From a virus: a DNA stretch of 64,000 bases. This document shows positions 4,388-49,262 of this stretch, one piece after another. Made by a program: the position numbers and the translations under genes. The stretch is from positions 28,108 through 92,107 of IMG/VR virus record IMGVR_UViG_3300028178_000001. One strand, given 5' to 3'. The notes under the pieces are model-generated. The model was not told the origin of the DNA. It did no database searches and saw only the letters and a program-made list of their open reading frames with translations. The stretch's first letter is position 1; each line of letters opens with the position of its first letter.

Positions 4388-7131
4388 AATTATTAGGTCT
4401 CAATCTAAGAGGGAGTATCGGCGTTAGGAAGGGTATGGGTCTTGAAGAAATAGAGATTGATTTTACCCAATTTGGGCCGGGGCTAATTGCCATAACCGGA
4501 ATAACGGGGAGAGGCAAATCTACTATCATGGACAATTCACAACCATTCCGGGAGCTTCCATCAAAGCCCGGAACATTAGAAGAACACTTCGAACTAAAAG
4601 ATTCATACCGCGTGTTAAGGTTTACTCCGGGCGGAGAGAACATCTTCGAAACAAAATTATTAATTGACGGATTAACTAAAAAGAGCGAGGCCTATCTTTA
4701 TAAGAATGGTATTGCTTTGAATGACGGGTTGAAGTTGAGCTATGATAGAGAAGTAATAAAATTGTTTGGTTCGTCGAAGTTGTTTTTCAATTCGGTATTC
4801 GCAGCGCAAAAAACAAAAGGAATTTTTTCTTTAAAAGAAGGGGAAAGCCGTGAATTATTCTATGAAATACTTGATATTAACAACTACACTCCCAAAGAAG
4901 ATAACGCAAAGAAATATCTCCAAAACGAAAAGAATAAATTAGAGGTTTTGGAAAATGAAATTAAGGTATTCACTGCTGAAATGACCGGTTGTAAGACTTC
5001 CAAGGAAGATATTGAAAGCAAGATTTATGCAAGGGAGGAATTAGCATCTTCAAAAATGAAGTGTGAGGAAAAGATTAATGAGTATAGGGGAGGGATTGAA
5101 AACCTAAACGGAGTTATTGCCGGGCTAAGTATAAAAATTGAACAGCAGCAAGAAATAAATGATCGGATAACAGAACTTACCGAGGAGATAGAATTCCACA
5201 AAGAGAAGAAAGAACTTGAACTGGTTGAAATTGATGGGCAGCGAGATGCCGGACTAAATACTTTTGAATCTTCAAATGAATTTGATAAGCACATAAAAGA
5301 GTTGGAGACGAAAGAAGATTTTCTGACCGGTGAAGCCGACAGAGAGAAGGAAGAAATAAACAGTTCAATTGTTGTTTTAAATAATGAGATCAATGCAAAC
5401 GATTTGAAGAAAGTCCAAATTGAGGCAAAGATTACCAGAAGTAAAACAATACTTGAGAATAAGGGAACGATAGCTATTAATCTGGATGGAAAAAAGAAAT
5501 GGACGGAAGAAGCAGCGAAACTACTTGCAGAGGAGAAAGAGCATTTATTAGAAATAGGCAAATTGCAAGAAGGGAAAGAAGTAGAGGAAAAACTTTTACA
5601 GGCTTTGCGCGAGAGTTATTCGAATACCGATAAAATAAAATCTCAGAAAGATCACCAACTTTCCACAATAAAAGAACTTATCACATCTTTAGAACAATTG
5701 AAAAAAATCGGGTTAGATCGGCTAAGGGAAGAAATATCAACAATTGATAAAGTACCATGCAACGAAGTTATAGGACGCGATTGTATGTTCCTAACAAGAG
5801 CGATGGAAAGCAAGGATACGTTAAAAGACGTTGAGGACGACTATGATAATAAAATTGGGAGTAAAGATAAGGAACGTATAGCAATATTATTGCAACTCGA
5901 AGGGACCAAAAAGTTTTTGACTGAAGCAGATGAGGAGATTAAAGCGAAAGAGGAATTCATACAAAATAATTTTACCAGTAAAATTGAAGCTATCAATACA
6001 CTTGTAATTGCTTTAAAAGAAAAGGTAAAAGAAGCGGCGGGAAAATTAGCCGAACTTGCAAAAACTAATTGGGATGCGCTTGATAAAGAACTTGCGGAGG
6101 CAGAAAAGAACGACGAGTTATGGCAAAGCGAAATTAAAAATTTAGATAAAGCAAATGGAGACAAACGCAAACAAAAAAATGATTTACAAGAAAGACTTGT
6201 TAATATACAGGATAGATTAAACAATAACTTGCAAGATGTGGAAAATCAAATACTTAAGCATGGAGAGTTATTAGAAAAAGAACGGAAGGCAATCATTAAT
6301 TTTTATACGGAGAAGAAAAACTCTACTTTCACCAAATATGAGATGCAAAACGAAGGGTTAAAAAAGGAATTAGCCGCAAACTTAGTGAAGATAGATACAA
6401 CTCTTGAAATTCAAAAAAACGAAAAAGAGGTAATGTTGAAGAATTCAAGAACCGAGCTCGAGGCTGAAGAAAATTGGTTGAAAGAGACTGAAACGAAATT
6501 AACAGACATGCAAATAGAGATAGCAGACTTAAACAATAAATTGATAAAAAAACAATATTTAACAGATACAATTGAGTTGAAAAACGGAGAACGGTTATTT
6601 GTTGAAGAAGAAATTAAGCAGTGGGGGATTATAAGAGAGGCTATGTCAAAAACCGGAATTCCGGTTCTTAAATTGGAAATTTCCGGATCTGAAGTATCGA
6701 GGCTTACAAATGAATCTTTGAGAAATTATGACAATAAATTTAGGATAGTTTTTGAAACAACAAAATACACTAAGGATAAGAAGAAGCAAATAGAAATCTT
6801 CAAAACAAATGTTATTGATGAAGACGGTATTTGTGATGTTCTAAATAAAAGCGGGGGGCAGAAAACAGAAATTGAAACTGCAATGCAGCTAGCGATAGCT
6901 CATTTTAAAAGAAGCCAGGGGCAGGTGAAAGTAGATACCGGTTATTTGGACGAAGGAGATGGGTCTCTGGATGTAGAAAGTGCAGGAAATTATTTTAAGG
7001 TGATTGAGGAAGCTCACAAACGAAGCGGCGTTTATAACACAATAGTAATTACACACCGGCCCGAATTGATAGAACAGATTCCCCAGCGGATTGAATTGCA
7101 TGACGGATATTTTGAAATAATTAGGAATTAG
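4384..7131 (+). CDS. SbcC/Rad50-like SMC ATPase
   Basis: Walker A GITGRGKST, long coiled coil with central Cys pair, signature SGGQ, Walker B YLDEG, ITH; ATGA overlap with upstream stop. Confidence 0.88.
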   Translation: MKLLGLNLRGSIGVRKGMGLEEIEIDFTQFGPGLIAITGITGRGKSTIMDNSQPFRELPSKPGTLEEHFELKDSYRVLRFTPGGENIFETKLLIDGLTKKSEAYLYKNGIALNDGLKLSYDREVIKLFGSSKLFFNSVFAAQKTKGIFSLKEGESRELFYEILDINNYTPKEDNAKKYLQNEKNKLEVLENEIKVFTAEMTGCKTSKEDIESKIYAREELASSKMKCEEKINEYRGGIENLNGVIAGLSIKIEQQQEINDRITELTEEIEFHKEKKELELVEIDGQRDAGLNTFESSNEFDKHIKELETKEDFLTGEADREKEEINSSIVVLNNEINANDLKKVQIEAKITRSKTILENKGTIAINLDGKKKWTEEAAKLLAEEKEHLLEIGKLQEGKEVEEKLLQALRESYSNTDKIKSQKDHQLSTIKELITSLEQLKKIGLDRLREEISTIDKVPCNEVIGRDCMFLTRAMESKDTLKDVEDDYDNKIGSKDKERIAILLQLEGTKKFLTEADEEIKAKEEFIQNNFTSKIEAINTLVIALKEKVKEAAGKLAELAKTNWDALDKELAEAEKNDELWQSEIKNLDKANGDKRKQKNDLQERLVNIQDRLNNNLQDVENQILKHGELLEKERKAIINFYTEKKNSTFTKYEMQNEGLKKELAANLVKIDTTLEIQKNEKEVMLKNSRTELEAEENWLKETETKLTDMQIEIADLNNKLIKKQYLTDTIELKNGERLFVEEEIKQWGIIREAMSKTGIPVLKLEISGSEVSRLTNESLRNYDNKFRIVFETTKYTKDKKKQIEIFKTNVIDEDGICDVLNKSGGQKTEIETAMQLAIAHFKRSQGQVKVDTGYLDEGDGSLDVESAGNYFKVIEEAHKRSGVYNTIVITHRPELIEQIPQRIELHDGYFEIIRN

Positions 7132-8315: not shown

Positions 8316-9296
8316 ATGGCGGCAGATACAAAAATAGAATATTTAACAAAATCTTGGAACCCGATACAAACCATAATAAAAGGTGAAAGCGGACAAGGTT
8401 ATCACTGTACACACGTAGACGAAGGATGCCGTAATTGTTGGGCTGAGGGGATGAATGACCGATTTGGGAACAAACTTCCTTTCGATACGAAAGTATTTGA
8501 ATACGAGATAAAGAATAGTGAGTTAGCCAAACCCTTTTCATGGCACAAACCGCAGACGATAGGAGTTCAATTTATGGGAGATTTATTTCATAAAGACATT
8601 CCATTTGAACTTATTTTCAAGGTATTTGTGGTAATGCAACGAGTGATAACCCAGCATGCATTTTTGGTTTTGACAAAAAGACCGGAGCGGATGTATGAAT
8701 TCTTTTCTTTGCCAATGGATAGAATTGATCCTTTGTGGATGGATTTATCATTAAACAAAACTAAAGTTGGAGATCTGTTCTCCCACTGTAAAAACATTTG
8801 GTATGGTACATCTGTAAATGATCAACAAAGCGCAAACACACGAATATCGGAATTACTGAAGATTAAAAAAAGATTTCCAACGGTGAAATTATGGGTAAGC
8901 ATTGAGCCGATGCTCGGAGTGATCGACATTAAAAAATATTTGCACGAAGTGAAAGACGGTTGCGGTGATGCTCTAGGGGTTGATTGGGTAGTGCTGGGAG
9001 GTGAAAGCGGACCAAACGCGCGACCATTACACCCGGATTGGGTACGCAATTTAAGAGATCAATGCAAAGAGGCAAACGTGCCATTCTTTTTCAAACAGTG
9101 GGGAGAATGGGTGCCGGAACCGGATATACACAAAGGCAGAACTCTTTGGTTCGATGGTTCGATGGATACGGGAATAGCAAGCAAAAACGGAATTGGTAGA
9201 AATGTAAGAAGAGTTGGGAAGAAAAAAGCGGGGCGATTGTTAGACGGAGTTGAACATAATGAATTCCCGGAAGGAGTAAATGATGGCAAGCATTAG
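8316..9296 (+). CDS. DUF5131 / phage Gp37Gp68 family protein
   Basis: TKIEY..WNP..CTHVDEGCRNCWA..MGDLFH..LTKRPERM..SIEPMLG..DWVVLGGESG..ARP..FFFKQWGEW. Confidence 0.88.
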   Translation: MAADTKIEYLTKSWNPIQTIIKGESGQGYHCTHVDEGCRNCWAEGMNDRFGNKLPFDTKVFEYEIKNSELAKPFSWHKPQTIGVQFMGDLFHKDIPFELIFKVFVVMQRVITQHAFLVLTKRPERMYEFFSLPMDRIDPLWMDLSLNKTKVGDLFSHCKNIWYGTSVNDQQSANTRISELLKIKKRFPTVKLWVSIEPMLGVIDIKKYLHEVKDGCGDALGVDWVVLGGESGPNARPLHPDWVRNLRDQCKEANVPFFFKQWGEWVPEPDIHKGRTLWFDGSMDTGIASKNGIGRNVRRVGKKKAGRLLDGVEHNEFPEGVNDGKH

Positions 9297-20593: not shown

Positions 20594-20737
20594 ATGTTAA
20601 GTTTGAAACTGAAATATAAAATTAAATACTACTACACAAAGTTTTGCCATTTGTTTGGCTTCTGCCCGAAGTGTTTTACAAATGTTAATTATACGCAAAG
20701 CGGAAAAGCTATTTGTCCGCGAGGATGCAAGTATTGA
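20594..20737 (+). CDS. small zinc-finger protein (47 aa, not in ORF track)
   Basis: MLSLKLKYKIKYYYTKFCHLFGFCPKC...ICPRGCKY. Confidence 0.5.
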   Translation: MLSLKLKYKIKYYYTKFCHLFGFCPKCFTNVNYTQSGKAICPRGCKY

Positions 20738-22566
20738 GAAACATAATATTACAAGGAAATGTACTTGAAAGGTTGAAAGATATGGAAACCGGAAGTGTAC
20801 ACTGCATGATAACTTCGCCACCTTATTACGGAGTTAGAAATTACGGAACAGAGCCGCAGATATGGAAACCGGAAGGATACACTGCATGCGGCGAACATGA
20901 ATTTTATGAAGGGAAAAAGAAACATAATTTAGGCGGATGCAGCAGCAAAAGCACATTGAGAGACATACCCGGACAAAAGGCAAAAGAGAATTGGGCAAAG
21001 GGAGCAAGTTGCGAGCATGAATTTGATACATGTACAATAATAAAAGATAAAGCTCAAAAAGATTTTTCAAAAAGTGGATTGAAGAATGACGGCAGACCGG
21101 AAGAAAAGAGAATAGCCACAAATGAAAAGTCTAAATATAATCTTCAACTAGCAACAAAAGTTTTAAGCGGTTTTTGTATTAAGTGCGGCGCATGGAAAGG
21201 GGAACTTGGACTTGAACCAACGCCGGAGCTTTACATAGAACATGTTGTACAAATCTTCCGTGAGATAAAAAGAGTATTGCGAAAGGACGGAACGGCTTGG
21301 CTTAACCTTGGAGATAGTTATTGGGGAAGTTGGGGAAATTACGGCGGGCAAAACCGGGGGAACGGAAAGCAGAGAGAAATTATTAACGGCAGTCAAGCGC
21401 CAAACCCCGCGTACGATGGATTAGAAGATTTTATACCACCGACAGCCACTAAACATAATTATTTAAAACCAAAAGATTTAATAGGCATACCGTGGAGAGT
21501 TGCAATAGCTTTGCAGCGAGACGGCTGGTGGTTAAGGAGCGATATAATTTGGAGCAAAAAGAACCCGATGCCCGAGAGTGTAACGGATAGACCAACCAAA
21601 GCGCATGAGTACATATTTTTACTAACGAAAAGTCAAAAGTATTATTATGATGCAGAAGCCATAAGAGAAGAAGCGGTACGATCAGGCGATACACAGATAT
21701 TTGGCGGACAAAAAGCATTGAATAACATTATTGGAGAGAATGACCCACGGTTTAGAAACGGGCATGAACAATGGGGAAGAACACACACACAATTATCGGG
21801 AAGGAATAAGCGTTCGGTTTGGGAAGTGACCACAACGCCATTTGCAGAGGCGCACTTTGCGACATTTCCCCAAAAGCTGATTGGGCCTTGCATACTTGCC
21901 GGAACGAGTGAGCACGGTGTTTGTGCGGAGTGCGGGAAGCCGTATGAAAGGATTTTGGAGAAAGTTTCTAAAAGAGATTTCTTGAAAGATGCAGACAAAC
22001 AATATCGAAGCAGAGCAACCGAACATCAAATAATGCCGAAAGATCAACCGAACCGAGGTTCGGTTGATACGCCAAGAGCCGCAAGCGCAACAAAATATGA
22101 CACGGAAAATTCGACTGCCGGAAGGTTGCCAACCTTCCGGCAAGGGGAACGGATGTATAACACAAAATACGCTGATGAATCTCACGGGCAGCAGCTTAAT
22201 GCATTTATGAGGGAACAAACCATAGTAGCGGAAAGAGATGAGAGTAGAGTGGAAGCGGAAGCGTTATATCCGGGTGATATTCAGGCACAAAAAGCGTACA
22301 TAAATTACGTTCACGAGCACGGACAGTTAAGAAAAACCAAAACAATTGGATGGAAGAAAACTTGCAAGTGTGAAACGGAGAAAGTTAAACCGGCGATAGT
22401 GCTTGATCCTTTCTTTGGTGCCGGAACAACGGGCTTAGTTGCATTGAGGAGCGGAAGAAATTTTATAGGGATAGAGTTAAACGAAGAATACATAAAGATC
22501 GCAGAGAAAAGATTAGCACCGTTTATGCAAAACTTGTTCAATCAGCAAGAAGAGGAGGCAGCGTAA
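20725..22566 (+). CDS. DNA N6-adenine/N4-cytosine methyltransferase (beta class) with insertions
   Basis: TSPPY, LGLEPTP, LNLGDSY, IIWSK.NPMPES..DRPT..HEY, HFATFP, DPFFGAGTTG, GIELN. Confidence 0.9.
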   Translation: MQVLRNIILQGNVLERLKDMETGSVHCMITSPPYYGVRNYGTEPQIWKPEGYTACGEHEFYEGKKKHNLGGCSSKSTLRDIPGQKAKENWAKGASCEHEFDTCTIIKDKAQKDFSKSGLKNDGRPEEKRIATNEKSKYNLQLATKVLSGFCIKCGAWKGELGLEPTPELYIEHVVQIFREIKRVLRKDGTAWLNLGDSYWGSWGNYGGQNRGNGKQREIINGSQAPNPAYDGLEDFIPPTATKHNYLKPKDLIGIPWRVAIALQRDGWWLRSDIIWSKKNPMPESVTDRPTKAHEYIFLLTKSQKYYYDAEAIREEAVRSGDTQIFGGQKALNNIIGENDPRFRNGHEQWGRTHTQLSGRNKRSVWEVTTTPFAEAHFATFPQKLIGPCILAGTSEHGVCAECGKPYERILEKVSKRDFLKDADKQYRSRATEHQIMPKDQPNRGSVDTPRAASATKYDTENSTAGRLPTFRQGERMYNTKYADESHGQQLNAFMREQTIVAERDESRVEAEALYPGDIQAQKAYINYVHEHGQLRKTKTIGWKKTCKCETEKVKPAIVLDPFFGAGTTGLVALRSGRNFIGIELNEEYIKIAEKRLAPFMQNLFNQQEEEAA

Positions 22567-26107: not shown

Positions 26108-27925
26108 ATGAACATTTTTTTAGATAAAACCGGACAACCCCAAGCGCAAAATACGGAAAAGCATATTTTAAGCACAGAAGAAATGCTTGACGATATTTTG
26201 CAAGACGACCAGCTGCAGAAACAACTGAATGAGCAGAGTAAGGCGGGCGGGATTGTTTTACCTCTTGCTGAAGAAATGATTTCGACGTTACAAGAAATTG
26301 AAGGGCTTAATTTTGACTATGCAGGGCAACAAAAAATTATTAACTGGGAAAACCAGGACGTTCCATACCGTGTGTTAAGAAAGGCAGGAAATACGGAGGC
26401 GGGGAGACTTGTTAAGAACCATCGCCGGTTAGGTTTAACGCAGTATGGGCGGACACCAAAATCAGACGGGATACAACGAGGGGCAAAATTAGTTTTTAGT
26501 GATCCGGATTATTCCCCCACAAAAGAGGAAAAATTAAAGCTAAGGATTTGGGAGGATAAGATTTTTAAGAATTTCTTTTTCCCGGCAAACGACCGTTGGG
26601 CGAATTTTGCCAAGTTTATAGGAAATGCTTATGAAGATTGGTTTGACCTGGACGATATAACGGCTGAGATACGGAGGGACGGGCTTGGAGACCCACTAGC
26701 GGTACATTTACAAGATCCGATAATTTATAAGCCGGTATTAAAGAAAAGCAGAGTTTACCCAAATTGGAGAGGGGAGGAGGATTATCTAAACCCTTACATT
26801 GAAGATTGGGAAGCGATGGTAACGGGTAAGAGAGCTTTTATTGATGAAGACGAAGTGCCGCTTGAACCGGATTATGTTTTGCATTATAACAATATGCGGC
26901 TAGGAGCAACTACTGATTATCATGTAAGGAAATTCCACTTTTTTACCCGTAGTGATTTTAGATTTGCACAGCGCGGGTACGGGATAGTTGAACAATCCAT
27001 TTCAATTCTAACATACATAATTAATGCGTTAAAAATGAATGCCAGCAATTTTATGAATAATAAATTGCCGAAGGGGTTTGTATTATTCACCGGAGGCGGA
27101 ATTGGGGCAATGCAGCTTGAAAAATTGAAGAAGATAATGAGCGCATACATGGGAGGACTTGCTCCAAACCGTTTCCCGATTCTTGGACTGAATAGCGAAA
27201 AGGGAGATGGTAAATGGGTGGGAATAGGTGGGAACAGCCGCGAGATGGAATACCACCTTTGGATTACTCTTCTATTTTCGATCTTTTGCCGGTTGAGTGG
27301 AACAGATCCGCGGGAAGTGAGTTTAGGGGCTCATTCAGACGCGATAAGACCGCAAAGTATAGGGGAAAAGAGCGCGGACGGTGTTGTAAATGAGAATAAG
27401 GATATGGGGGAAAGAACATTTCTTATCCATCTAAAAGATTCACTGAATGCTACCGATAAATACGGTTTGAATTTATTCCAACAAATTACAAAGATGAGAG
27501 TTGAGCTGGATTTTGCCGGATTTGAGATTGAGGATAAGAAACTTAAGCAGGAGATTACAAAAGGATACTTACAGACAAGTAAATCAATAAACGATGTTTT
27601 AGCGGAAGAGGATAAGGAGAAATATACTTTAATGATTGATGAGGATACAAACCTCTTTGATATCCCGGCAGCTAATTGTGAAGTAGTTAAAAGTGTAATA
27701 CAATTTAAGCTAAATGCCTTTGCACAAAAGCAGGCCGCCGAACAGCAGCAAGCCGCCGAACAGCAGCAAGCCGCAATGGGTGGAGGGATGCCAGGACAGC
27801 CGGGAGCGGGACCAGGTGAGGAAGGTGATCAGAACGGGGAGGGATTAACTGAAGACGATAAAGCATTAATTGAAAAATATAAAGGAGCAAGTAATGTTGA
27901 GATTGATAAGGAATTAAAGCAATGA
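26108..27925 (+). CDS. portal protein
   Basis: 605 aa; D...EIRRD..G.P...H..D, GYG..E..I, N...F.N..PKG, MEY..W...L....C..DP.E; Q/G-rich C-tail; first gene of head module. Confidence 0.8.
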   Translation: MNIFLDKTGQPQAQNTEKHILSTEEMLDDILQDDQLQKQLNEQSKAGGIVLPLAEEMISTLQEIEGLNFDYAGQQKIINWENQDVPYRVLRKAGNTEAGRLVKNHRRLGLTQYGRTPKSDGIQRGAKLVFSDPDYSPTKEEKLKLRIWEDKIFKNFFFPANDRWANFAKFIGNAYEDWFDLDDITAEIRRDGLGDPLAVHLQDPIIYKPVLKKSRVYPNWRGEEDYLNPYIEDWEAMVTGKRAFIDEDEVPLEPDYVLHYNNMRLGATTDYHVRKFHFFTRSDFRFAQRGYGIVEQSISILTYIINALKMNASNFMNNKLPKGFVLFTGGGIGAMQLEKLKKIMSAYMGGLAPNRFPILGLNSEKGDGKWVGIGGNSREMEYHLWITLLFSIFCRLSGTDPREVSLGAHSDAIRPQSIGEKSADGVVNENKDMGERTFLIHLKDSLNATDKYGLNLFQQITKMRVELDFAGFEIEDKKLKQEITKGYLQTSKSINDVLAEEDKEKYTLMIDEDTNLFDIPAANCEVVKSVIQFKLNAFAQKQAAEQQQAAEQQQAAMGGGMPGQPGAGPGEEGDQNGEGLTEDDKALIEKYKGASNVEIDKELKQ

Positions 27926-28209
27926 TAAAAATTAAAATGTGGGGGCAGACAGTATTAGAAATAGAGGGGATTGAAACGAAAGGGACAGTAAACAATTTCC
28001 ACTACCGGGATTGTGTTTTCGGGCAGCCGATAATTGTAACGATGAAAAGCGAGGGGACAACAGCACAACGGGAGATAAAAAGAGAGACGATATCCGAAGA
28101 AAAGTATCTTGGTATGGTAAAGGACGTTGCGAACAAGACTGGATTTGACCCAAGTGAAGTTGAGTGGATTTTAAGAGAGGCTGAGGGTTATTTAGGAGGA
28201 GCATCATAA
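27922..28209 (+). CDS. hypothetical protein
   Basis: Coupled between portal and MuF-like gene. Confidence 0.55.
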   Translation: MIKIKMWGQTVLEIEGIETKGTVNNFHYRDCVFGQPIIVTMKSEGTTAQREIKRETISEEKYLGMVKDVANKTGFDPSEVEWILREAEGYLGGAS

Positions 28210-30346: not shown

Positions 30347-33300
30347 ATGATTTCTTACAAATTACCGGATTATGAAGGCGGATTTATTACCAAATCAGTT
30401 GAATGTAATTGCATTGTTACGCGGGATGCTAACGGGTACTTACTAGGGAGTAAACCGGTTAATTGTGTAAAGAAGGGAGTTAATACCAACTTTGGGAAAG
30501 TTGTGGATTATTCAACTAATTATGTTGTTCTAAAAAATGGCTCGAATGTTAAACGGGTGAGACGGGAAGATCTGAACAATATTTTGTTAAAAAGTTTGGA
30601 CCAACCGGAAGTTATATCTGAAGAGATAAAAGTATCGGGGAGTTTTGAAACTTTAGCGGGGAAGGTTTTGGTTAAAAGTGAAAGTGAAATTGTTCGTGAC
30701 TTACTTACCGATCCGGATAAAGTTTTAGCCAGGGGGAATAGCATAATTTTTTCTAAAACCAAAAATGGGGTAGAATATGAAGCTGAAGCAGTAAAGAAAG
30801 GATTGCTTGCAAAATCATTGTTATTAAAGGGGATTACATCAAAAGAATTAGTTGTAACGAAAAGAATATTATTCAAAGGGGTAGCGTTGTCTTTAAAGAC
30901 TCCGAAAGTATTTAATTTGAATAGTTCACCGGCGGGGAGCAGTGGAAGTGCATGGAACGCAAAAGGAGGGATGAAACCAAATCATAAATACATTGAACGA
31001 AAACCGGCGAAGAGCGGAGACGGTTATATTTATTTGTATGAACTTCCTTCCGGTAAAAAGGAATGGAGAGATGAGGCGGGAAAAGCGGTTGAGGGAGGTC
31101 AAGCGAGCGCGGATTATCAGTTAGAAGAGTTTAAGGTTGGTGATATTGTAAGACAAGGAGAACGGCTTGGAAGAATAAAGGAATCTTCTACAAACATGCT
31201 TGCGGTAAATTTTGGGGGAGAGATGAAAGTGATCAACAAAAAAGAGCATGTTGAAAAGGTTAAGCAACACCAATTGATGAGAGAAGGGGATACGATGTTG
31301 TATGAGGGAAACGATGCAAAAATACTCCGTGTAACCGGGAAAGCAGCATTGATAAACACGGCTGATAATAAGCTGAAGGTGATAAATCTTGAGAAACAAC
31401 TCGAGAAATACGAGCCCCAAAAAGATGAGAAACGATTAAATAAATACAGTGATGTATACCAGGGAGAAGCAGAGCGAAGAGCCGGACAAGGAGGAGCGGA
31501 TAATTACAATATCAGTTATGAAGAACAGCCGGGGTATAAGGATTTTATAAACAACGCAAAGCAAACCGGATTTGGGAGGAAAAGCGATCTTGAAATGGTT
31601 AAGCGAATAGAGACCGGGAACCGTTTACGAACAGTCCGGTGGGACTATAACCCGGAGACACAAGATATTAGTTTTATGGTTGACGGAGTTGAGGATTATC
31701 CGTTAAGTTTTATGGGGAAGAAATACAAAATTAGGGATATTACCGATGAAGGGTATAGTTTGGAGGATGCAGAAACAAAAGAAAAAGGTTTATTCTTATC
31801 GCACAAAGATTATGCAGCTCATTCGAAAGATAATGAAATGCGAACTGATTTGAAGCATGAAAAGGTTGGAGGAGTAAACGGATATGAGGTTGTAAAAGAA
31901 CCAGCCAGAACTTTTAGTTTTAAGCCGAAATATACTGAAGAGGAAAGGGCAAGATTTGATAAACGCGGCGGAAGCCGGCCCAGCCGTTGGACACGGGGGA
32001 AAGAACGGAGTTTGCAAAGCACAGAGGAAAAGAAACGATTAGTTGAGGCACTAGCCGAACAACGTAAAAAGAATCTTGAAGTTTTGGGGACAAAAGATTT
32101 TGCAGATTTTGAAAAGCTGCACAAGGAGAAAGGATTTTCAATTGGAGAGAATAGATTTCATGCTGTAAAAGAAATTGAGGCAGGAGGAAGAACTTTTAGA
32201 ATAAAAAGTCAATTTAAACCGGATAAAATGAGTTGGGAAACATCGATCGATGGACCGGTTAAAAAATTACAGTTGGGAGAAAAGCATTTACCGATAACGG
32301 ATATATCGAAGGATAAAGTTTTTTACCATGAAGGAGGGGATGAAAAAAGTATATCCTTTGATGAGCTGAAGACCATTAACGGGAAAAGTTTGTTTGAACC
32401 GACAAAAGAGAGCAAAGGAATTGTAAGTAATTTAGATCCGATGAAGATTTATTTTGGTGATAAGGATGTAACAAGCGGTATTTATGAAATAGTTGAGGCA
32501 AAGGATTTAGTAGCTTCTCATAAACCGGATGGAACCCCAAATAAAGATTATCAGATATCAGACGCGCAGAACAGAGACCGCAGCACTCCGCAAAGTATTG
32601 CACAAATAAACAAGATTGCAACTAATCCAAATTTTGATTTCCTAAGCGACAGCAAGACCGCACAGGACGGTGCACCTATTGTTGACGAAGATTATAACGT
32701 TATTGCCGGGAATGGGCGGGGAATAGGCGTACAGCAGCATTACGACAATAAAGGGGAGAAATACCGGAGCGATCTTTTAAAGAATGCCGGGAAATATGGT
32801 TTTAGCGCTGAGGATGTTGAGAAGATGGAACAGCCGGTTTTGGTGAGGCGAACGAATGTTGACGCGAAGGAGGCGCAACGACTGGGAGCAATAAGTAATA
32901 CTTCAAATATGCTCGCAACGGAGGAACGGGAAGCAGCGAAAGGAAAAGCAACGAGAATTGACGACGCAACGTTTAACAATTTATCAGGAATGTTTACTTC
33001 GGCTGAGGGAGTACACGAAACACTTAACCAATATCTTGATGAAATTGGACCGGATATTGTGAATGAATTGCTTAAGAAGAAAATAATCCCGGAGAATGAA
33101 GCGCACTTGTACATTGATCCAAAGAGCGGAAAGATGGATGCAGGGCATAAGGAAAAGGTTAAGCAGATATTAACGCAATCGGTTTTGGGAGAGAGCAGCC
33201 AGCATTTTGAGAAGATACCGGAAGCGGCAAGGGCGGGAACGGTTAAAAGTCTTGGAGATATTTTTGCGCTGAAGGGGAAAGCCGGTGATATTGTTCCTAA

Positions 33301-34408
33301 TCTACAGGAAGCCGTAAAGATATTGGCAAAGTATGAGGCAGTTAAGGATAATTTTAAGTCCCCGGATGATTTTGTTAAGCAAGCGGCAAATGACGCGTTT
33401 GAACCGTTGAAAGGGAGCAAAGAGGGATTAGCATTGTTCGAATTACTTTCCGGCAGCAAACCAAATGAGATGAAGGATAAAATACATGATTACAAGTTAA
33501 GCATGGGAGGGGATATGTTTAGCGAAGGCAAACCGGCGAATGAAGCGTTTGATGAAGTGTTTAAGCCGAGGTATGTAAGCGGGGTTAATAAGAGTTTGTT
33601 TAGCAGAATAAAGATGTTCGGGAAACGATTGAGAAAATCTTTAAGTGGAAATGAACGGGATGAGTTTAACAAAAAACACCCGAGAGATAAAAAAGGTAAA
33701 TTTGAAGTAAAGAAAGGGGGGGAGTTAAAAAAACTATTTGATGAATTTAGGAGTAAGTATGTAAAAGCATATGAGACACCACTTGGTATTGTTAAGTTGC
33801 GCGAAAAAGACTTTCATAAAATAGTTGGGATACACCAATTCGGAAGAGATGCTTTTGAAAGAATGCTTGCTGAGGGTTCTATAAATTGGGATGTAATTGA
33901 GAGTGGGGATATCCGTGATTTGGAAGTATTCAATTTTATAGAAGATATTCTTATTAAGCCGGATGAAATAAGAATTGCAAAAGAGGGGAAGCTTGATTCG
34001 GATTTTATTTTCATTTTAGATAGAGGAGGTATTCAATATTATGTAGCGTTTACAAAAAATGATTTAGTAAGGACACTTCATAATTTTGATAAAAATTATA
34101 TTGAACGCAATAGCGGTAAAACTATTTATACAAAAGAAAAAGGGCTTATTAAATCAATAAGCCCTATAAAAAATCGTCACTCCTTTCGCCTCAGCACGGC
34201 GAGTGACTTTCCAAGGGCAAATATAGTGAGTGCAGGTATTATTGTCAAGGGGAATCATAAATTAAGCGAAGAATTATTTAATGAATCGTCAACGGGGAAT
34301 GACGGGAGTTTTGATTCGGAGAACGCGGATATAACGCAGGGGACAAAGATAACGAGGAAAATAATTATGAAGAGAAAGAAGAAGAGGGACGAAACTTTTT
34401 TATTGTAG
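30347..34408 (+). CDS. large polyvalent virion protein: DdrB-like ParB domain plus C-terminal PBECR-like nuclease domain
   Basis: YEIVEA.DL..SH, QNRDR, GAPIV...NVIAGNGR (about 32450-33580); HPRD..GKF; IEDIL..PDEI region (about 33720-34140). Confidence 0.72.
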   Translation: MISYKLPDYEGGFITKSVECNCIVTRDANGYLLGSKPVNCVKKGVNTNFGKVVDYSTNYVVLKNGSNVKRVRREDLNNILLKSLDQPEVISEEIKVSGSFETLAGKVLVKSESEIVRDLLTDPDKVLARGNSIIFSKTKNGVEYEAEAVKKGLLAKSLLLKGITSKELVVTKRILFKGVALSLKTPKVFNLNSSPAGSSGSAWNAKGGMKPNHKYIERKPAKSGDGYIYLYELPSGKKEWRDEAGKAVEGGQASADYQLEEFKVGDIVRQGERLGRIKESSTNMLAVNFGGEMKVINKKEHVEKVKQHQLMREGDTMLYEGNDAKILRVTGKAALINTADNKLKVINLEKQLEKYEPQKDEKRLNKYSDVYQGEAERRAGQGGADNYNISYEEQPGYKDFINNAKQTGFGRKSDLEMVKRIETGNRLRTVRWDYNPETQDISFMVDGVEDYPLSFMGKKYKIRDITDEGYSLEDAETKEKGLFLSHKDYAAHSKDNEMRTDLKHEKVGGVNGYEVVKEPARTFSFKPKYTEEERARFDKRGGSRPSRWTRGKERSLQSTEEKKRLVEALAEQRKKNLEVLGTKDFADFEKLHKEKGFSIGENRFHAVKEIEAGGRTFRIKSQFKPDKMSWETSIDGPVKKLQLGEKHLPITDISKDKVFYHEGGDEKSISFDELKTINGKSLFEPTKESKGIVSNLDPMKIYFGDKDVTSGIYEIVEAKDLVASHKPDGTPNKDYQISDAQNRDRSTPQSIAQINKIATNPNFDFLSDSKTAQDGAPIVDEDYNVIAGNGRGIGVQQHYDNKGEKYRSDLLKNAGKYGFSAEDVEKMEQPVLVRRTNVDAKEAQRLGAISNTSNMLATEEREAAKGKATRIDDATFNNLSGMFTSAEGVHETLNQYLDEIGPDIVNELLKKKIIPENEAHLYIDPKSGKMDAGHKEKVKQILTQSVLGESSQHFEKIPEAARAGTVKSLGDIFALKGKAGDIVPNLQEAVKILAKYEAVKDNFKSPDDFVKQAANDAFEPLKGSKEGLALFELLSGSKPNEMKDKIHDYKLSMGGDMFSEGKPANEAFDEVFKPRYVSGVNKSLFSRIKMFGKRLRKSLSGNERDEFNKKHPRDKKGKFEVKKGGELKKLFDEFRSKYVKAYETPLGIVKLREKDFHKIVGIHQFGRDAFERMLAEGSINWDVIESGDIRDLEVFNFIEDILIKPDEIRIAKEGKLDSDFIFILDRGGIQYYVAFTKNDLVRTLHNFDKNYIERNSGKTIYTKEKGLIKSISPIKNRHSFRLSTASDFPRANIVSAGIIVKGNHKLSEELFNESSTGNDGSFDSENADITQGTKITRKIIMKRKKKRDETFLL
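34133..34213 (-). ncRNA. putative antisense small RNA embedded in the CDS
   Basis: Minus-strand TTGACA-17-TATATT promoter, GTCACTC/GAGTGAC stem, then 10-bp terminator hairpin with U-run. Confidence 0.55.
34220..34248 (-). promoter_or_regulatory. sigma70-type promoter on minus strand
   Basis: -35 TTGACA (34248-34243), 17-nt spacer, -10 TATATT (34225-34220), also matching TAnnTTTG. Confidence 0.6.
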
Positions 34409-34497
34409 GTGAATAAAAGATTTTATAAGTTAATACATAAGAATAAATGTAAATTAACAGAACAAATAACAATAACTTAACACAAGGAGTTAGAACA

Positions 34498-34962
34498 ATG
34501 GTACAATTCCCATTACTCACAAACGCTGAGGTTCAGGCAAAAGACTTTATGAACCAGGGAGATATTACGAAAGCATTAGACCTTTTGCAGAATCTTCCGT
34601 ATGTAAACGTTTCATCCGCATTGGCAGCAGGCGCAACGGGTGTAACGGTAAACGAACACATCTTTGTAGCGCCATGCAAAATGGAAGTTTTGCAGGCAAA
34701 GTTCATTACAACCGCAGTTAACACGGGTTCGGGCAACGAGCCGGTAGTAAAATTGATGGCCGGGACTGATGAAGTTGGAGCCAGCGGCGCAGTTGTGGTA
34801 GCAGGCGCGGCGATCGGTGATGTTGCAAGCTTAACACTCGACAGCGCCAAGGTTGTAGTAGCGTCCGGAGGAAAACTTATTCTTAGAATAGTTAACCCCG
34901 GAGGAACAATAACCACACCGTTAACCGGAAAACTTCAGTTCATTTGGAAACCAACTGTTTAG
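34498..34962 (+). CDS. putative capsid decoration/structural protein
   Basis: A/G/V/T-rich beta-type sequence, strong AAGGAG RBS. Confidence 0.55.
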   Translation: MVQFPLLTNAEVQAKDFMNQGDITKALDLLQNLPYVNVSSALAAGATGVTVNEHIFVAPCKMEVLQAKFITTAVNTGSGNEPVVKLMAGTDEVGASGAVVVAGAAIGDVASLTLDSAKVVVASGGKLILRIVNPGGTITTPLTGKLQFIWKPTV

Positions 34963-35045
34963 TTGGTGGTTATTAGTAGTCAGTTATCAGTTATCAGTTG
35001 ATAGAAGAAATTTTATCAATAATTGATGACTGACTTCTTTTTTTT

Positions 35046-35073
35046 AATTACGAATTAGGAATTAGGAATTAGG
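35046..35073 (+). repeat. AATTA(C/G)G heptamer array (4 units)
   Basis: Directly visible, ends in AGGAG. Confidence 0.85.
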
Positions 35074-35084
35074 AGATTGAGGTT

Positions 35085-35393
35085 ATGTTAATATTTTACA
35101 CAGAGAGAGAAGGAGGGAACTGGATACCGTTGAGGGTAAAAACTACACGGGGCAAATTATTGAAGCGGTTGAAAAAATTTGCATTTAAGAAATTAGCAGA
35201 GATTATAATTGAAGGGGAAAAGTTTCTTATGGCTAGTGTGTTGTTCCCAAACGATTTGGTTTACTGCCCTATTCTTAACCAAACAGATAGAATTAAATCA
35301 AAAGGGAAAACTTGGTTTTTTAAAAGTGGTAAACTCACCAAAGTAACTACGAATTATCATAAATGGTTGAAAGGACAATTAGGGATTAAATGA
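35085..35393 (+). CDS. hypothetical protein
   Basis: 102 aa, GAGG upstream. Confidence 0.55.
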   Translation: MLIFYTEREGGNWIPLRVKTTRGKLLKRLKKFAFKKLAEIIIEGEKFLMASVLFPNDLVYCPILNQTDRIKSKGKTWFFKSGKLTKVTTNYHKWLKGQLGIK

Positions 35394-37111
35394 GCGGCAG
35401 GATAGGACAGTGCGATAGTTTGGAGTTTATGAAAAAGCAAGAAGATTTTTCTGCTGATATTATCTATTGTGATCCGCCGTATGCGTTGGGGAGTGAAGTT
35501 ATTATACGCAAAGACGGGAAACCGGATTATAAAAAAGCCGTAGATTTTATGAATAAATGGGATATGCCAAACGGCGATTATTGGGAGGCTTGGTTTAAGG
35601 AAGCATTTAGAGTATTAAAGTACGGCGGGCGTGTAATAATGTTTGGAATGGACCGCCAATTAATGCTGAATAAATATTATGCTTGTTACGCCGGATTTGA
35701 GGAACAGCAAAGTTTGTATTGGTATTTTATTTCGAACTTTCCGAAAGCTACTGATTTAAGCAAAATGATTGACCGAAACGCAGGAGCGGGAAGGGAAGTT
35801 GTTGGAATAACTTCTATCCCAAATGGGAAAGAAAGTGCATACCAAGGTGAACGATATAAAGAAAAAAGGGAAACTGCTTTTGGGGTTATTCAAGACCAAC
35901 CGGATAAAACCGCGCCATTCACAGAGCTTGCAAAAAAATATGAGGGATACAAATATTCTATTTCACCATTAAAGCAAACGAACGAAACGATAATGGTTTT
36001 TCAAAAGCCATATAAAACCGGAAGTTGTTTGCACGACACTTTTGCGTATGAAAATGGAGATAGGGAATGTTTATGCGGGGCTTTGAATATTGAGGGAAAT
36101 AGAGTTGGATTCGCTTCAAATGAAGATGAAGCGGAGAGTAAAAATAAAAATCAACATGAAGATTTTGGCACAAAGCCAATGACGGGTAATAATGTTTACG
36201 GCGATTTTTCTATGATCGGACAAAAGAATTATAATCCTCCCGGTCGTTATCCTTCGCAAACTTTTATTGAGTGCATTTGTGATGAAGTAGTTATTAAAAA
36301 GAATGAGGCGCAGCCATATTCTTACAGCGGAAAAGAATACCAGAACAAAGAAACATCGATGTTTAACGGAGACAAACCACAAGCGCCAAGTAATTATAAT
36401 GATAAAGGAAGCGGCCAGATACACACGAATCCGAATTGTCCGTGTGCAAGATTAGATTTACAAAGCGGAGAATTGCAAAAAGGGAAAGGGGACTATGTAC
36501 GCAAAAACGGAGCGGAACAATTTTTAAGCGCAATGGGGCAAGATAAAACAGACCCGCCAAATAAAATATCAGATACCGGCGGATGCAGCAAGATTTTACA
36601 CAAGTGTGAGTTTGATGAAGAAGAGCATGATATTTATTTTTATTTCCCGAAGGTGAGTAAGGCTGAACGAAACGGCGGACTGGAGGAGCTATCACTAAAA
36701 GGAAGGGAACCAAAGGGCAATAATCAAGGAGTGAGATATTGTAAAGATTGTGGTTTAACAGATAATGGGACCAATAATCATAACAATTGCTCTGGTATAT
36801 TTGAATATAAACTTTGTCAGTCTGTTAAGAATAACCATCCCACATTAAAACCAATTGCGTTAAACAAAAGAATTTTATCTCTGTTCAAGACACCGAACGG
36901 GCAGAAAATACTTTATCCTTTTGCCGGAACCTTTTCAGAAGTAATAGGGGGATATTTAGCGGGGTTTACAAATTTTGAAGGTTGCGAGTTAAAAGAAGAA
37001 TGGATAACCATAGGCGAAGCAAGGTTTAGTTACTGGACAAATAGAGAGAAGAAAGAAGCTGCTGAAAATGAAGATCAGTTTAATTTATTCACCCAGACCG
37101 AGGCAGCATAA
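35390..37111 (+). CDS. DNA N6/N4 methyltransferase (beta class)
   Basis: CDPPY, RVLK.GG, FPK, GRYP, NNHPTLKP, variant motif I YPFAGTFS, GCEL. Confidence 0.82.
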   Translation: MSGRIGQCDSLEFMKKQEDFSADIIYCDPPYALGSEVIIRKDGKPDYKKAVDFMNKWDMPNGDYWEAWFKEAFRVLKYGGRVIMFGMDRQLMLNKYYACYAGFEEQQSLYWYFISNFPKATDLSKMIDRNAGAGREVVGITSIPNGKESAYQGERYKEKRETAFGVIQDQPDKTAPFTELAKKYEGYKYSISPLKQTNETIMVFQKPYKTGSCLHDTFAYENGDRECLCGALNIEGNRVGFASNEDEAESKNKNQHEDFGTKPMTGNNVYGDFSMIGQKNYNPPGRYPSQTFIECICDEVVIKKNEAQPYSYSGKEYQNKETSMFNGDKPQAPSNYNDKGSGQIHTNPNCPCARLDLQSGELQKGKGDYVRKNGAEQFLSAMGQDKTDPPNKISDTGGCSKILHKCEFDEEEHDIYFYFPKVSKAERNGGLEELSLKGREPKGNNQGVRYCKDCGLTDNGTNNHNNCSGIFEYKLCQSVKNNHPTLKPIALNKRILSLFKTPNGQKILYPFAGTFSEVIGGYLAGFTNFEGCELKEEWITIGEARFSYWTNREKKEAAENEDQFNLFTQTEAA

Positions 37112-46394: not shown

Positions 46395-47771
46395 TTGGAT
46401 AACAAGTTTGAATTTTTCGCACCGGCTTATTTGGCTAAAAGCGGAAGTAAAACCGAACCATATAAAGTTGGTGGGATTATTTCTACTGAAGAACGAGATA
46501 CAGATGGGGAAATAATGAAAAGTATTGACTGGGGTTATTTCACTTCCGGGTTTGGCAAAATAAAATATGAACATAAAGAAGTTTCCGAACCACACTGCAT
46601 AATGGGCTTCCCGACAGGATTGAAAAAGAGTGGTAAGAAATGGATTTTTGAAGGAGAGTTGGTTGCGTTCGATCCGGATTTACCCCACGAAAAATTGACA
46701 CAACCACAACAATTTGCAAAATCAACTGTAGCATTATTGCAAAATATGGAAGAGTTCAATAAACGACATCCGAACACAACGCAAAAAGCGGGGTGGAGTA
46801 TAGAAGGTGAATATCTTTCTAAGAGCAAAAGTGGGGATGTTGCGGCTCGGGCGGTAAATGTAGTGTTCACGACAAAACCCCGGAACAGAGGAACGTTTGC
46901 AGAATTAAGAAAGAGTTTGGAAGTAGGATACGGAATGGCACCGGGAGGACAAACCGGATTTGGAGCTACAAGAAAAGAATCAATTGATCATAACATTAAA
47001 CTAAATGGAGTTACAAAAATGGAAACGAAAAATGATGTTTACAAAAAATGTTTAGCCAAAGGCATGACCCCGGAACAGGCGAAGAAAGAGGCAGACGATT
47101 TTGAAACAAAGCAAAAAGGGGAGATGAACGAAAGTTTTGAAACCGCTGCAAAGTCATTAGGCACAGCGAAATTATCTCTTCAAAAATCGCTTGATACGGC
47201 GAAATCAATCTCCGATGTAGAGATTGATATTGATATCAAAGCTCAAGAAAAAAGTTTGCAGAAATCAATTGCGCTGATGAATAAAGGCGGGGAAGATGCG
47301 GACATTTCCGAGTATCTTGAAAAATCCTCTGAAGTTTCATTAACCGCGCTTAAAGCGATGGACGCGATTAATCAGAAAATTGATTTGCTTGCGAAATCGA
47401 TTGAGTTATTTGCCGAAGGACAACTTGGACAAATTGCCGGTAACGAGCACCTCGTTAAATCAATCGATGTTGCGAATAACCAAATAGAAGACCAGAGAAT
47501 GGGTCTAGTTGCTTTATACAACCAACTAAGAAAAAGCGGCGGCAATAGATTGTTGACGGACAATATCAAATTTGTTGAGAACAATAAGGACGTAGGAACA
47601 GGAGCAGAATTGAACAAAGCTCAAAAAATTAAAGTGCTTGAAAAATTGGTTGTAGAAAAATCAGTTGATGAAGTAGTTCTAGTTGATTTTTGCGCCGGTG
47701 GAACACAGGCAACTTTGCCGGAAAATGTTGAACAGCTGGTGAAATCAAAAGCTGTTGACATGTTTAAGTAA
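46395..47771 (+). CDS. prohead protease / scaffold
   Basis: GIISTE..D.DGE..G.IKYEH..GWSIEG..V.FT.KP.N; coiled-coil C-half rich in KS motifs; directly before MCP. Confidence 0.8.
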   Translation: MDNKFEFFAPAYLAKSGSKTEPYKVGGIISTEERDTDGEIMKSIDWGYFTSGFGKIKYEHKEVSEPHCIMGFPTGLKKSGKKWIFEGELVAFDPDLPHEKLTQPQQFAKSTVALLQNMEEFNKRHPNTTQKAGWSIEGEYLSKSKSGDVAARAVNVVFTTKPRNRGTFAELRKSLEVGYGMAPGGQTGFGATRKESIDHNIKLNGVTKMETKNDVYKKCLAKGMTPEQAKKEADDFETKQKGEMNESFETAAKSLGTAKLSLQKSLDTAKSISDVEIDIDIKAQEKSLQKSIALMNKGGEDADISEYLEKSSEVSLTALKAMDAINQKIDLLAKSIELFAEGQLGQIAGNEHLVKSIDVANNQIEDQRMGLVALYNQLRKSGGNRLLTDNIKFVENNKDVGTGAELNKAQKIKVLEKLVVEKSVDEVVLVDFCAGGTQATLPENVEQLVKSKAVDMFK

Positions 47772-47840
47772 GAAAAGGTTAACACATAAGAAAGTTTAAT
47801 AACTAACTTTTTAAAAATAAAAAACTATTGGAGTAATAAA

Positions 47841-49262
47841 ATGGACGATTTAATGTTTGGCGAACAATACGCAAATAGCGGTGCTTCGACAATGAAAGAC
47901 CTCCAGGACTTAGCCAAAGCACTTGAGGTTGGCTATGCGATGGGGACAACGGACCAAGCCGGGTTCGCGGCCACGAGACTGGAGAGTCTTGACCCGGTTG
48001 TAAAATGGCTGACACTCAATGAATCTTCACCGGCTTTTTTTAGAGCAATGAGAAAAGGTAAGGCATCTAGCACGGTTGAAGAATTTGTAACGATGAATGA
48101 AGTTGGTGACGCCAATTTTTATGCTGAAGGCGGAATCCCGGATGAATACGATGAAGATATCCGAAGAGAATTTGAGCAGGTGAAATACATCGGAACAGTA
48201 GGGAAAATACCTTTGCAAGCATTGATGGTGAAGAGCAATACCAACAATGAAGCTTTGATAACAAGAGCAAAAGCACTTGCTATTATGAAAACCGCAGACA
48301 GCAAAATGATCTACGGCGATTCCGGACGAAATCCTTACGAATGGAACGGATATTACAAACAATTCAAAGCCAAGGCGAAAAATCTTAACCAGAACACAAT
48401 TGATTTGCGCGGCAAACGTATTAGACCGGAAACCCTTAATGAATCTGTAAAGATTATTGCGGATAACTGGGGGAACCCAAATAACGCGAAGTGTTGGATG
48501 AGCGCAAATGATTTTCAATACTATACTGATGAATTGTTAGCGGGTAGAAGATTTGTTACGGGAAGCTCAGAAGCTCGTGATCTTATTGCCGCTGCAAGAA
48601 AATTCGAGTTAGGAAACGGAAAGGGAAATATTGAAACCGATATTCTCTTGAAGTACAAAGGGCAAAATTACATCGGCGCAGAATACCCAAAAACAAACAC
48701 CGCAGGGACAGTATTTGCCGCAACAAACAGCAAAGCACCGGCAACGTTAGACTCAGGTAGCGCCTCTATCTCTATTGATTCAGATGCAGCTACACAGCTT
48801 GACGCAGCAACTTATGACTATGCATTTGTTCCGGTAAATAGATTTGGATCTGGAAAAGCCTTTGAACTGAAGACTAATGTTGTTGCAGCTTCTAAACGTT
48901 GTACGTTTACGTTGACTGATAACGGATCACCGGCGGGACAAGAAGCCACGAGTTTTGATGTTTACCGCAAACTTTCATCCGCTGCTGCAATTACAAGTTA
49001 TAGATATTTGGTCTCATTTACCGCTGCAGAAGTAAAGATCGATAACGGCGAATGGATACCGGGGTCAACAAACATCTTTGTTTGGGATTGGGACTTTGAA
49101 CAAGTGCTCGATTTCCGGCAATTGCTACCAATGACCAAAATGGAATTAGCAAGAATTGATGATTCCAAACGTTGGATGCAAAAGCTATGGGCTGTACCGA
49201 TCCTTGCAGCACCGAACAAAATGGTGATGATAAAGAACGCAGGTTCAACAGCTTGGTCTTAA
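47841..49262 (+). CDS. major capsid protein (SPO1/Twort-like)
   Basis: LAKALEVGY..DQ....A.RLESLD..V..LT; STVEE; EGG.P; YGDS; LLPM.KM.LA..D..W..L.AP.K...IKN. Confidence 0.88.
   Translation: MDDLMFGEQYANSGASTMKDLQDLAKALEVGYAMGTTDQAGFAATRLESLDPVVKWLTLNESSPAFFRAMRKGKASSTVEEFVTMNEVGDANFYAEGGIPDEYDEDIRREFEQVKYIGTVGKIPLQALMVKSNTNNEALITRAKALAIMKTADSKMIYGDSGRNPYEWNGYYKQFKAKAKNLNQNTIDLRGKRIRPETLNESVKIIADNWGNPNNAKCWMSANDFQYYTDELLAGRRFVTGSSEARDLIAAARKFELGNGKGNIETDILLKYKGQNYIGAEYPKTNTAGTVFAATNSKAPATLDSGSASISIDSDAATQLDAATYDYAFVPVNRFGSGKAFELKTNVVAASKRCTFTLTDNGSPAGQEATSFDVYRKLSSAAAITSYRYLVSFTAAEVKIDNGEWIPGSTNIFVWDWDFEQVLDFRQLLPMTKMELARIDDSKRWMQKLWAVPILAAPNKMVMIKNAGSTAWS

Follow-up and report, generated by a model that had tools for sequence, protein, structure and literature searches.

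Can a gene for a small RNA lie hidden on the opposite strand of a long protein-coding gene, and can it serve a single domain of the protein encoded there? The question is raised by a complete 92,107-bp virus record from lake water (IMG/VR record IMGVR_UViG_3300028178_000001), of which positions 28,108 to 92,107 form a stretch of 64,000 nucleotides (nt) that we call the window and whose own numbering is used below. Nearly all of the long open reading frames (ORFs) of this genome lie on the plus strand. One of them encodes P0001, a virion cargo protein of 1353 amino acids (aa), and on the minus strand within that gene, between positions 34131 and 34248, there is a promoter match followed by two hairpins and a run of Ts. 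Our analysis supports, with a probability of roughly 0.6, the reading of this element as a minus-strand small-RNA gene, the product of which would be a cis-antisense RNA of about 80 nt, overprinted on a disordered linker and travelling with the RNase-like cassette to which the linker belongs. We regard the element as a small antisense unit of this PBECR2-like cassette because its terminator hairpin covaries, its T-runs lie on the minus strand, rare codons maintain a TTGAC-17-TAnnTT promoter match, the linker is predicted to be disordered, and the unit is transferred together with the cassette and is absent where other cassettes stand. The RNA would probably serve the RNase-like domain as an in-built regulator or antidote.

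Read along the minus strand, the element opens with a -35 hexamer, TTGACA (34243-34248), separated by a 17-nt spacer from a -10 hexamer, TATATT (34220-34225). The two hexamers are antisense to the codons (AT)T GTC AA(G), encoding I-V-K, and AAT ATA, encoding N-I, respectively. The predicted antisense RNA would start about 7 nt past the -10 hexamer and occupy positions 34213 to 34133, ending in a U-run. Its first structure, hairpin 2 (34176-34207), has a 7-bp outer stem GTCACTC/GAGTGAC, a 3-bp inner stem GCC/GGC, a 7-nt loop and an A-rich internal loop on the 3′ side. The second, hairpin 1 (34141-34165), is the terminator stem, a perfect 10-bp helix around a 5-nt loop (AGGGCTTATT-GATTT-AATAAGCCCT) at a distance of 54 nt from the promoter; its left arm coincides with codons for K-G-L-I and its right arm with codons for S-I-S-P. 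The terminator U-run TTTTTCTTTT (34131-34140) follows, antisense to K-E-K codons. All of these parts, together with a plus-strand frame that remains open across them (ORF 30347-34408), had been picked out by a sequence-only reading of the window, and all are present as it described. With its own promoter and intrinsic terminator, opposite to and overlapping the target gene, the element has, at the level of sequence, the layout of a countertranscript.

The element exceeds chance expectation. Its promoter match scores 11/12, ranks first in the interval from 26 to 45 kb and is one of three matches of at least 11/12 in the 92-kb genome; the other two sigma-70-type 11/12 matches are also on the minus strand, at positions 8737 and 4807 of the full record (G000), within its first 28 kb and outside the window. 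Hairpin 1 is the sole minus-strand perfect hairpin (stem of at least 7 bp) with a T-rich tail in the 92 kb. The claim that this is the only recognisable minus-strand transcription unit was borne out by a genome scan, in which it was the sole promoter-plus-terminator pair on that strand. Folding of the 83-nt predicted RNA yields -27.5 kcal/mol, with z = -3.5 relative to dinucleotide-shuffled sequences. Elsewhere in the window, two perfect 11-12-bp hairpins that lack T-runs (22043-22068 and 22116-22142) were observed inside a methyltransferase-like ORF (20713-22566).

Is the unit kept in relatives of the cassette? The comparison at the DNA level covered the window and two IMG/VR loci, L027 (the P0008 gene, with the cassette in an N-terminal slot) and L029 (the P0007 gene, with the cassette in a C-terminal slot), the cassettes of which share 31-37% aa identity with that of the window. 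At the same linker position, both loci have a minus-strand promoter match, a stem-loop, a perfect hairpin of 10-13 bp and a T-run, composed of sequences that differ from locus to locus. The L027 unit consists of TTGACT-17-TAAGTT, the outer stem TTGCCTC/GAGGCAA, the hairpin AGGTCTGTTA-GTTT-TAACAGACCT and TTTTTTT, and the L029 unit of TTGACA-17-TAAATT, the outer stem TCTGAA/TTCAGA, the hairpin AATCCACTGC-TTTTT-GCAGTGGATT and TCTTTTTT. The pattern TTGAC(A/T)-17-TAnnTT is retained in three of three lineages, all of which have the T-run on the minus strand. The equivalent of hairpin 1 is the top-ranked terminator-like site at both L027 and L029, and the strongest perfect hairpin in each of these 4-kb genes; the L029 promoter is also the top-ranked promoter-like site of its locus.

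Base pairs were counted from the base of each hairpin in folds of coordinate-defined sub-regions, as the RNAs have diverged too far for an in-register alignment with MAFFT. Hairpin 1 showed both-sided (compensatory) changes in every comparison, with four between the window and L027, eight between the window and L029, and seven between L027 and L029, and not one broken pair. The outer stem of hairpin 2 (six pairs compared) showed three, six and five such changes in the same three comparisons, again with no broken pair. A survey of homologous cassettes for a reverse promoter, hairpin and terminator with covariation had been suggested as a check on the sequence-only reading, and L027 and L029 are the two loci in which this combination was found. 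No conserved small ORF was seen on the minus strand on inspection of the element sequences of the window, L027 and L029. Rfam gave no match at E <= 1 for L027, L029 or a near copy in contig L026 (described below), and only chance-level rows (E >= 1.7) for positions 33000-35500 of the window, with the skipping-rope RNA family RF02924 included in the search. A 2026 preprint on the skipping-rope RNA makes no reference to toxins or phages. A search for trans targets within the genome returned only low-complexity A-rich matches to the element.

Could such an element simply fall out of the protein that is encoded across it? This rival explanation holds that, the genome being AT-rich, the peptide of the linker (K-E-K-G-L-I-K-S ... 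N-I-V..I-V-K) yields the hairpin, U-run and hexamers as a coding by-product or by chance. The peptide is indeed partly conserved among cassette homologues, as K-[EK]-K-G-L-x-K and then N-[IL]-x6-V-[KN]; Lys and Glu codons supply the U-run, the conserved V-K/N and N-I/L residues supply the -35 and -10 hexamers, and promoter-like sites are overall no commoner than in shuffled sequence. We asked how often each peptide, back-translated with the gene's own codon usage, would give elements of this quality. The probability of a perfect stem that equals or exceeds the observed length was 5.5e-4 in the window (at least 10 bp), and <5e-5 and 2.5e-4 at the other two loci, whilst the probability of an equal or better promoter score was 0.0034 in the window, 0.0067 at L029 and 0.59 at L027. 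For hairpin 2 of the window, 4 of 1000 synonymous shuffles folded as well as the native sequence. The hairpin 1 stems are wholly different in sequence between lineages and always perfect, and the peptides of their right arms (SISP, LTDL and AVDS) are unrelated, with no residue conserved, which argues that the protein sequence follows the stem and not the reverse.

The codons of the promoter match bear a similar mark. The C of TTGAC is contributed by the Val codon GTC, which is rare in all three genes (2 of 79 Val codons in the window gene, 5/52 and 2/63 in the others; 2.5-10%) and is nevertheless used at the -35 site in three of three lineages, the product of the frequencies being about 8e-5. 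The residue after this Val is K or N, dissimilar amino acids whose codons both begin with AA, and this points to a nucleotide rather than a protein constraint. In the same way, the conserved linker residues spell both hexamers, whereas the intervening six are variable, as would be expected of selection on nucleotides. It seems likely from these patterns, if by no means certain, that the 'conserved linker peptide' N-[IL]-x6-V-[KN] is partly an imprint of the promoter hexamers, and that the terminator stem determines which variable residues follow K-G-L-x-K. An origin of the element by chance or as a by-product of coding is disfavoured, and we consider it very improbable.

The element stands at the end of an exchangeable part of the gene. 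P0001 is about 80% identical over aa 1-1100 to its orthologues P0002, P0003 and those of five IMG/VR loci (L020-L024), after which their C-terminal cassettes are unrelated. The identity stops near aa 1085-1100 and in some orthologues resumes at aa 1308-1314, with a 40-aa tail that ends in TFLL. This break and the regained tail identify aa 1090-1313 (33614-34285, plus strand) as a swapped-in cassette, composed of an HPRD-KGKF motif, a PBECR2-like domain and the linker, with the element at its 3′ end; the conserved C-terminal tail (aa 1314-1353, 34286-34408) is common to orthologues with other cassettes. The alternative cassettes include an ART-PolyVal type, an HExxH type and others. No minus-strand promoter-plus-terminator unit was found in L020-L023, where other cassettes occupy the same slot. 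On the minus strand of L023, at another cassette junction (5908-5935, peptide KKADVSSETSA), a 12-bp perfect hairpin precedes TTTTTTT; it is not kept in L021 and no promoter is recognisable upstream of it.

An exhaustive HMMER search for the cassette returned seven other proteins (P0005-P0011, 25-40% identity). The cassette occupies an N-terminal slot in the related polyvalent proteins P0005, P0006, P0008 and P0009 and a C-terminal slot in P0007, and is also present in the 369-aa protein P0010 and the 79-aa fragment P0011. No further relatives emerged from a related-locus search with the cassette, from P0006 against genome contigs or from P0010 against viral contigs, and a search with the cassette alignment gave nothing beyond the loci already found. 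A degenerate KEKGLIKSI pattern had only chance matches in viral contigs, and no match came from tblastn searches in which cultured phages were queried with three cassettes and plasmids with the window cassette, or from a blastn search of the window region against phages. On balance we believe that the putative RNA gene belongs to the cassette, since it accompanies it in either an N- or a C-terminal slot and is absent with other cassettes.

A conserved 111-aa ORF overlaps the stop codon of the polyvalent gene in L020 (6376-6711), L022 (5620-5955) and L023 (6616-6939), only where the last cassette is of the HExxH type, and may encode a cassette-specific partner protein.

How secure is the identity of the domain that precedes the element? 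The core of the cassette (aa 1187-1261, 33905-34129, plus strand) matches the BECR-fold RNase family PBECR2 (PF18810) with E = 0.011 and 16.4 bits, and matches fall at the same place of the cassette in P0008 (23.3 bits, E = 8e-5) and P0010 (20.1 bits, E = 8e-4). These matches are consistent with one another and all under the gathering cut-off of 27.1 bits, so the domain is best described as a divergent relative and not as a curated member of PF18810. In an AlphaFold2 model of the cassette, core residues 40-175 have predicted local distance difference test (pLDDT) values of 80-90, and residues 178-224 form a disordered tail with a pLDDT of about 33. This tail is exactly the part that encodes the antisense element, in agreement with the earlier proposal that the element lies directly behind the PBECR-like domain and is overprinted on a linker.

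Foldseek found no match to the cassette model at E <= 0.001, the top row being CdiA-CT 7m5f (E = 0.39). At or near the top of the VIA-align ranking, all with low Z, were colicin D tRNase (1tfk, Z 4.2; 5znm, Z 4.1), CdiA-CT (Z 3.8) and colicin E5 (Z 3.3). These matches are weak, if consistent with a BECR fold, and a BECR-fold RNase is a plausible identity for the cassette core. Of the nuclease domain proposed by the sequence-only reading, the PBECR2 and BECR-type resemblance therefore stands, with Pfam scores under the cut-off and Z values of at most 4.2, and its nuclease activity is putative.

A near copy of the element lies outside a polyvalent gene. A search of Joint Genome Institute (JGI) metagenome contigs with P0011 led to two contigs, L025 and L026, that contain a nucleotide-level homologue of window positions 34126-34258 (81-87% identity, blastn). 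The homology ends on the right, at 34258, at the junction of the cassette with the conserved tail, and its left end is set by a miniature inverted-repeat transposable element (MITE)-like insertion. Around this homologue, MITE-like repeats abound and no further homology to the cassette is seen, and we read the stretch as the decayed remnant of a related cassette. The MITE-like element itself is about 120 nt long (L025:2850-3170 and L026:2498-2605); its terminal inverted repeats (CTCACGTTACGCA) measure 13 bp and its target duplication (TTATTAA) 7 bp. One copy in L025 is inserted in the loop of hairpin 1, and more copies flank the remnant in both contigs.

Within the near copy, hairpin 1 shows one compensatory change from G:C to A:T, in which both substitutions are synonymous. 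In L026, a 3-nt insertion re-registers the stem to give 11 continuous pairs (13 with flanking A-U pairs), and the re-registered stem includes one G.U pair that is possible only in a minus-strand RNA. The stems of hairpin 2 are unchanged, the differences falling in its loop and bulge. The -35 hexamer TTGACA is kept and the -10 hexamer reads TAAGTT. Two homopolymer insertions or deletions shift the frame of four codons (NRHS versus SVTP), which suggests that protein constraint is weak there. The exact hairpin 2 pattern had no match in viral contigs or genome contigs.

On which strand does the element act? A serious rival to an antisense RNA gene is a conserved nucleotide signal on the sense strand or in the DNA, for which the promoter-like hexamers would be incidental. 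It might be a processing or stability site in the plus-strand mRNA, a translational pause between domains, or a recombination hot-spot for cassette exchange. The plus strand folds at least as well as the minus strand (z = -6.2 in the window, and -5.3 and -3.8 in the other two lineages, against -3.5, -4.4 and -2.6), the element lies 10-30 nt from the right recombination junction of the cassette, and the L023 hairpin described above, at another cassette junction, has a 12-bp perfect stem and no recognisable promoter. A signal of this kind leaves unexplained the minus-strand T-run in every lineage, as well as the rare GTC and AA-initial codons by which three lineages preserve a spacing of exactly 17 nt between TTGAC and TAnnTT. 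Hairpins in an ORF under translation would moreover be unwound by ribosomes, hairpin 1 and the A-run are not separated by a spacer of the kind found in frameshift signals, and the two hairpins are separate and local, unlike one long imperfect palindrome of the attC type. Programmed frameshifting at the A-run and hairpin was rejected, as two of the three lineages have no canonical heptamer and there is no spacer; an attC-like recombination site was rejected on the grounds of the two local hairpins. The evidence for the functional strand is mixed, which makes a sense-strand or DNA-level role a serious alternative, if in our estimation an unlikely one.

Several observations weigh against a minus-strand RNA gene. 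Given the peptide, hairpin 2 is non-significant in L027 (84/1000 synonymous shuffles) and L029 (154/1000), and it is slightly more significant on the plus strand. The inner helix of hairpin 2 in L027 is also longer on the plus strand, by three G.U pairs that can form on that strand only, so that wobble pairs give mixed evidence as to the strand. The L027 promoter scores only 8/12, with a -10 hexamer TAAGTT and the high probability given the peptide that was noted above, and the K-rich codons behind the U-run are a conserved peptide feature as well. The comparison at the DNA level involves only three independent lineages. The use of TTGACA/TATAAT promoters by the host is an assumption; the strong AGGAG ribosome-binding sites argue only against a host from the Bacteroidota. 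Finally, RNA contigs from three lake metatranscriptome runs cover 33885-34136 and 34395-34983, and none covers 34137-34394; since neither the strand nor the ends of a transcript can be read from such contigs, and libraries of this type usually lose small RNAs, the contigs are evidence neither for nor against expression of the element.

If an antisense RNA is made, how might it act? The RNA would pair perfectly with the mRNA of the polyvalent protein immediately 3′ of the part encoding the RNase-like domain, and could act in cis as a countertranscript that lowers expression of this potentially toxic, RNase-bearing protein at times of weak late transcription. RNase III might, for example, cleave the duplex. 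The position and size of the predicted RNA, which recall the OOP RNA of phage lambda and the 3′-overlapping RNAs of type I toxin–antitoxin (TA) systems, are the grounds on which we infer a cis-antisense role. Lambda OOP RNA is a 77-nt countertranscript that is transcribed from the promoter pO and is antisense to the 3′ end of cII. Like OOP, the proposed unit would give a phage RNA of about 80 nt from a constitutive-type promoter, with a stem-loop and an intrinsic terminator, and would by analogy lie antisense to the 3′ portion of a coding sequence, the product of which has to be held at a low level. It differs in having no sequence or Rfam relationship to OOP, and in lying wholly inside an ORF, on an interdomain linker of a 1353-aa protein, as part of a cassette.

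Prophage type I TA systems with 3′-overlapping antisense antitoxins include txpA/RatA, bsrG/SR4 and yonT/SR6 of Bacillus subtilis (PMC5848175, PMC3531482) and examples in Clostridioides difficile (PMC7699646). The proposed unit resembles these in its predicted convergent cis-antisense RNA of about 100 nt with its own promoter and terminator, in its position towards the 3′ side of a presumably toxic gene of a (pro)phage, and in the lack of a protein antitoxin. Type I toxins are, in contrast, small hydrophobic peptides (under about 60 aa) with their own mRNA, and P0001, a soluble multi-domain protein of 1353 aa, is not of this class. The presumed toxic part would here be an RNase-like domain within a giant protein, and the RNA would overlap an internal linker and not a 3′ untranslated region. 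Overall we place the element among the cis-antisense countertranscripts and RNA antitoxins, as the likelier of the homes available to it on the strength of its anatomy. Our literature searches found no publication describing such an element, and as far as they reach it is unpublished.

The sequence-only reading had proposed a different mechanism, in which the RNA would neutralize the PBECR-like RNase in the producing cell, either by binding the protein in the manner of a type III antitoxin or as a decoy that mimics an anticodon loop. In the type III system ToxIN, the ToxI RNA consists of tandem repeats encoded on the same strand upstream of toxN, with a terminator between them, and ToxN processes ToxI. 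An endoribonuclease toxin countered by an RNA would be common to ToxIN and the proposed unit by analogy, and the RNase-like cassette to which the latter is linked lacks a protein partner of its own. In the window and in L026 the inner loop of hairpin 2 is 7 nt long and, like an anticodon loop, has U as its second and a purine as its sixth nucleotide, and the best fold matches of the cassette, at low Z, are the anticodon-cleaving tRNases colicin D and colicin E5. Against this, neither the length nor the sequence of the loop is kept (5 nt in L027 and 6-11 nt in L029), no part of the element has less support than hairpin 2, and the nuclease activity of the domain is putative. Unlike ToxIN, the window unit has no tandem repeats, is antisense and lies downstream of the domain, so that it does not belong to type III. 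We consider a protein-binding or decoy RNA of this kind improbable, and the earlier proposal is not supported in this respect.

What of the gene that harbours the element, and of its neighbours? P0001 (30347-34408, plus strand) has a DdrB-like ParB domain at aa 713-836 (32483-32854; PF18763, E = 5e-28, 98 bits against a cut-off of 27.6), which places it among the polyvalent proteins as defined by Iyer et al. 2017 (PMC5512222). Both defining features of such proteins are found, as it is a large multi-domain protein with a DdrB-ParB domain, and its gene lies among virion genes, flanked by a portal gene (26108-27925) and by protease and major head genes (46395-49262), with a variable architecture in its orthologues. 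Iyer, Burroughs, Anand, de Souza and Aravind described polyvalent proteins with PBECR domains and covered protein domains alone (PMC5512222); a text search of that paper did not find the words 'antisense' or 'small RNA'. P0001 shares with the proteins they described its place in the virion module, its multi-domain build with DdrB-ParB, a predicted BECR-fold RNase domain and highly variable orthologue architectures, and differs in that its PBECR2 match is under the Pfam cut-off. Motifs resembling L-L-K-S or K-G-L-[LI]-K-S recur at the module junctions of P0001 and its relatives (aa 76-84, 160-172, 1095-1100 and 1265-1270; in the window at about 30572, 30824, 33629 and 34139), and may be cleavage sites of a maturation protease.

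The next ORF downstream (34498-34962, plus strand, 154 aa) was considered as a missing immunity protein. It is 75-82% identical in L020-L023 regardless of their cassettes, which makes it a core gene and not a cassette-specific partner; it was therefore ruled out, and the earlier observation that no protein immunity gene follows the nuclease-like domain was correct. The interval that includes this gene (34395-34983) is the best-covered part of the region in the three lake metatranscriptome runs, with contig starts at 34395, 34407 and 34448, from which neither expression level nor strand can be read. A short repeat at 35039-35076 coincides with arrays of the heptamer AATTAGG, recurs at other sites of the genome and in many other contigs from the source metagenome, and has a summed depth of 295 against 17.5 for its flanks.

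As well as suggesting an antisense RNA gene, the linkage of the element to its cassette raises the idea that a PBECR-type RNase domain and an antisense RNA together form a mobile, domain-level module of toxin and RNA antidote. We put this forward tentatively, as a possibility with the odds against it. If it were true, the RNA would be the immunity factor dedicated to the domain, by which phages could incorporate a tRNase-like weapon in a virion protein that is injected and yet dispense with a protein antitoxin, and what appears in these cassettes as a conserved linker peptide would be an RNA gene's footprint. Such a gene, placed inside a protein-coding linker and inherited with a single domain, would be invisible to standard annotation. 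It would also add a regulatory layer to the polyvalent proteins, which have so far been described only as assemblies of protein domains (PMC5512222).

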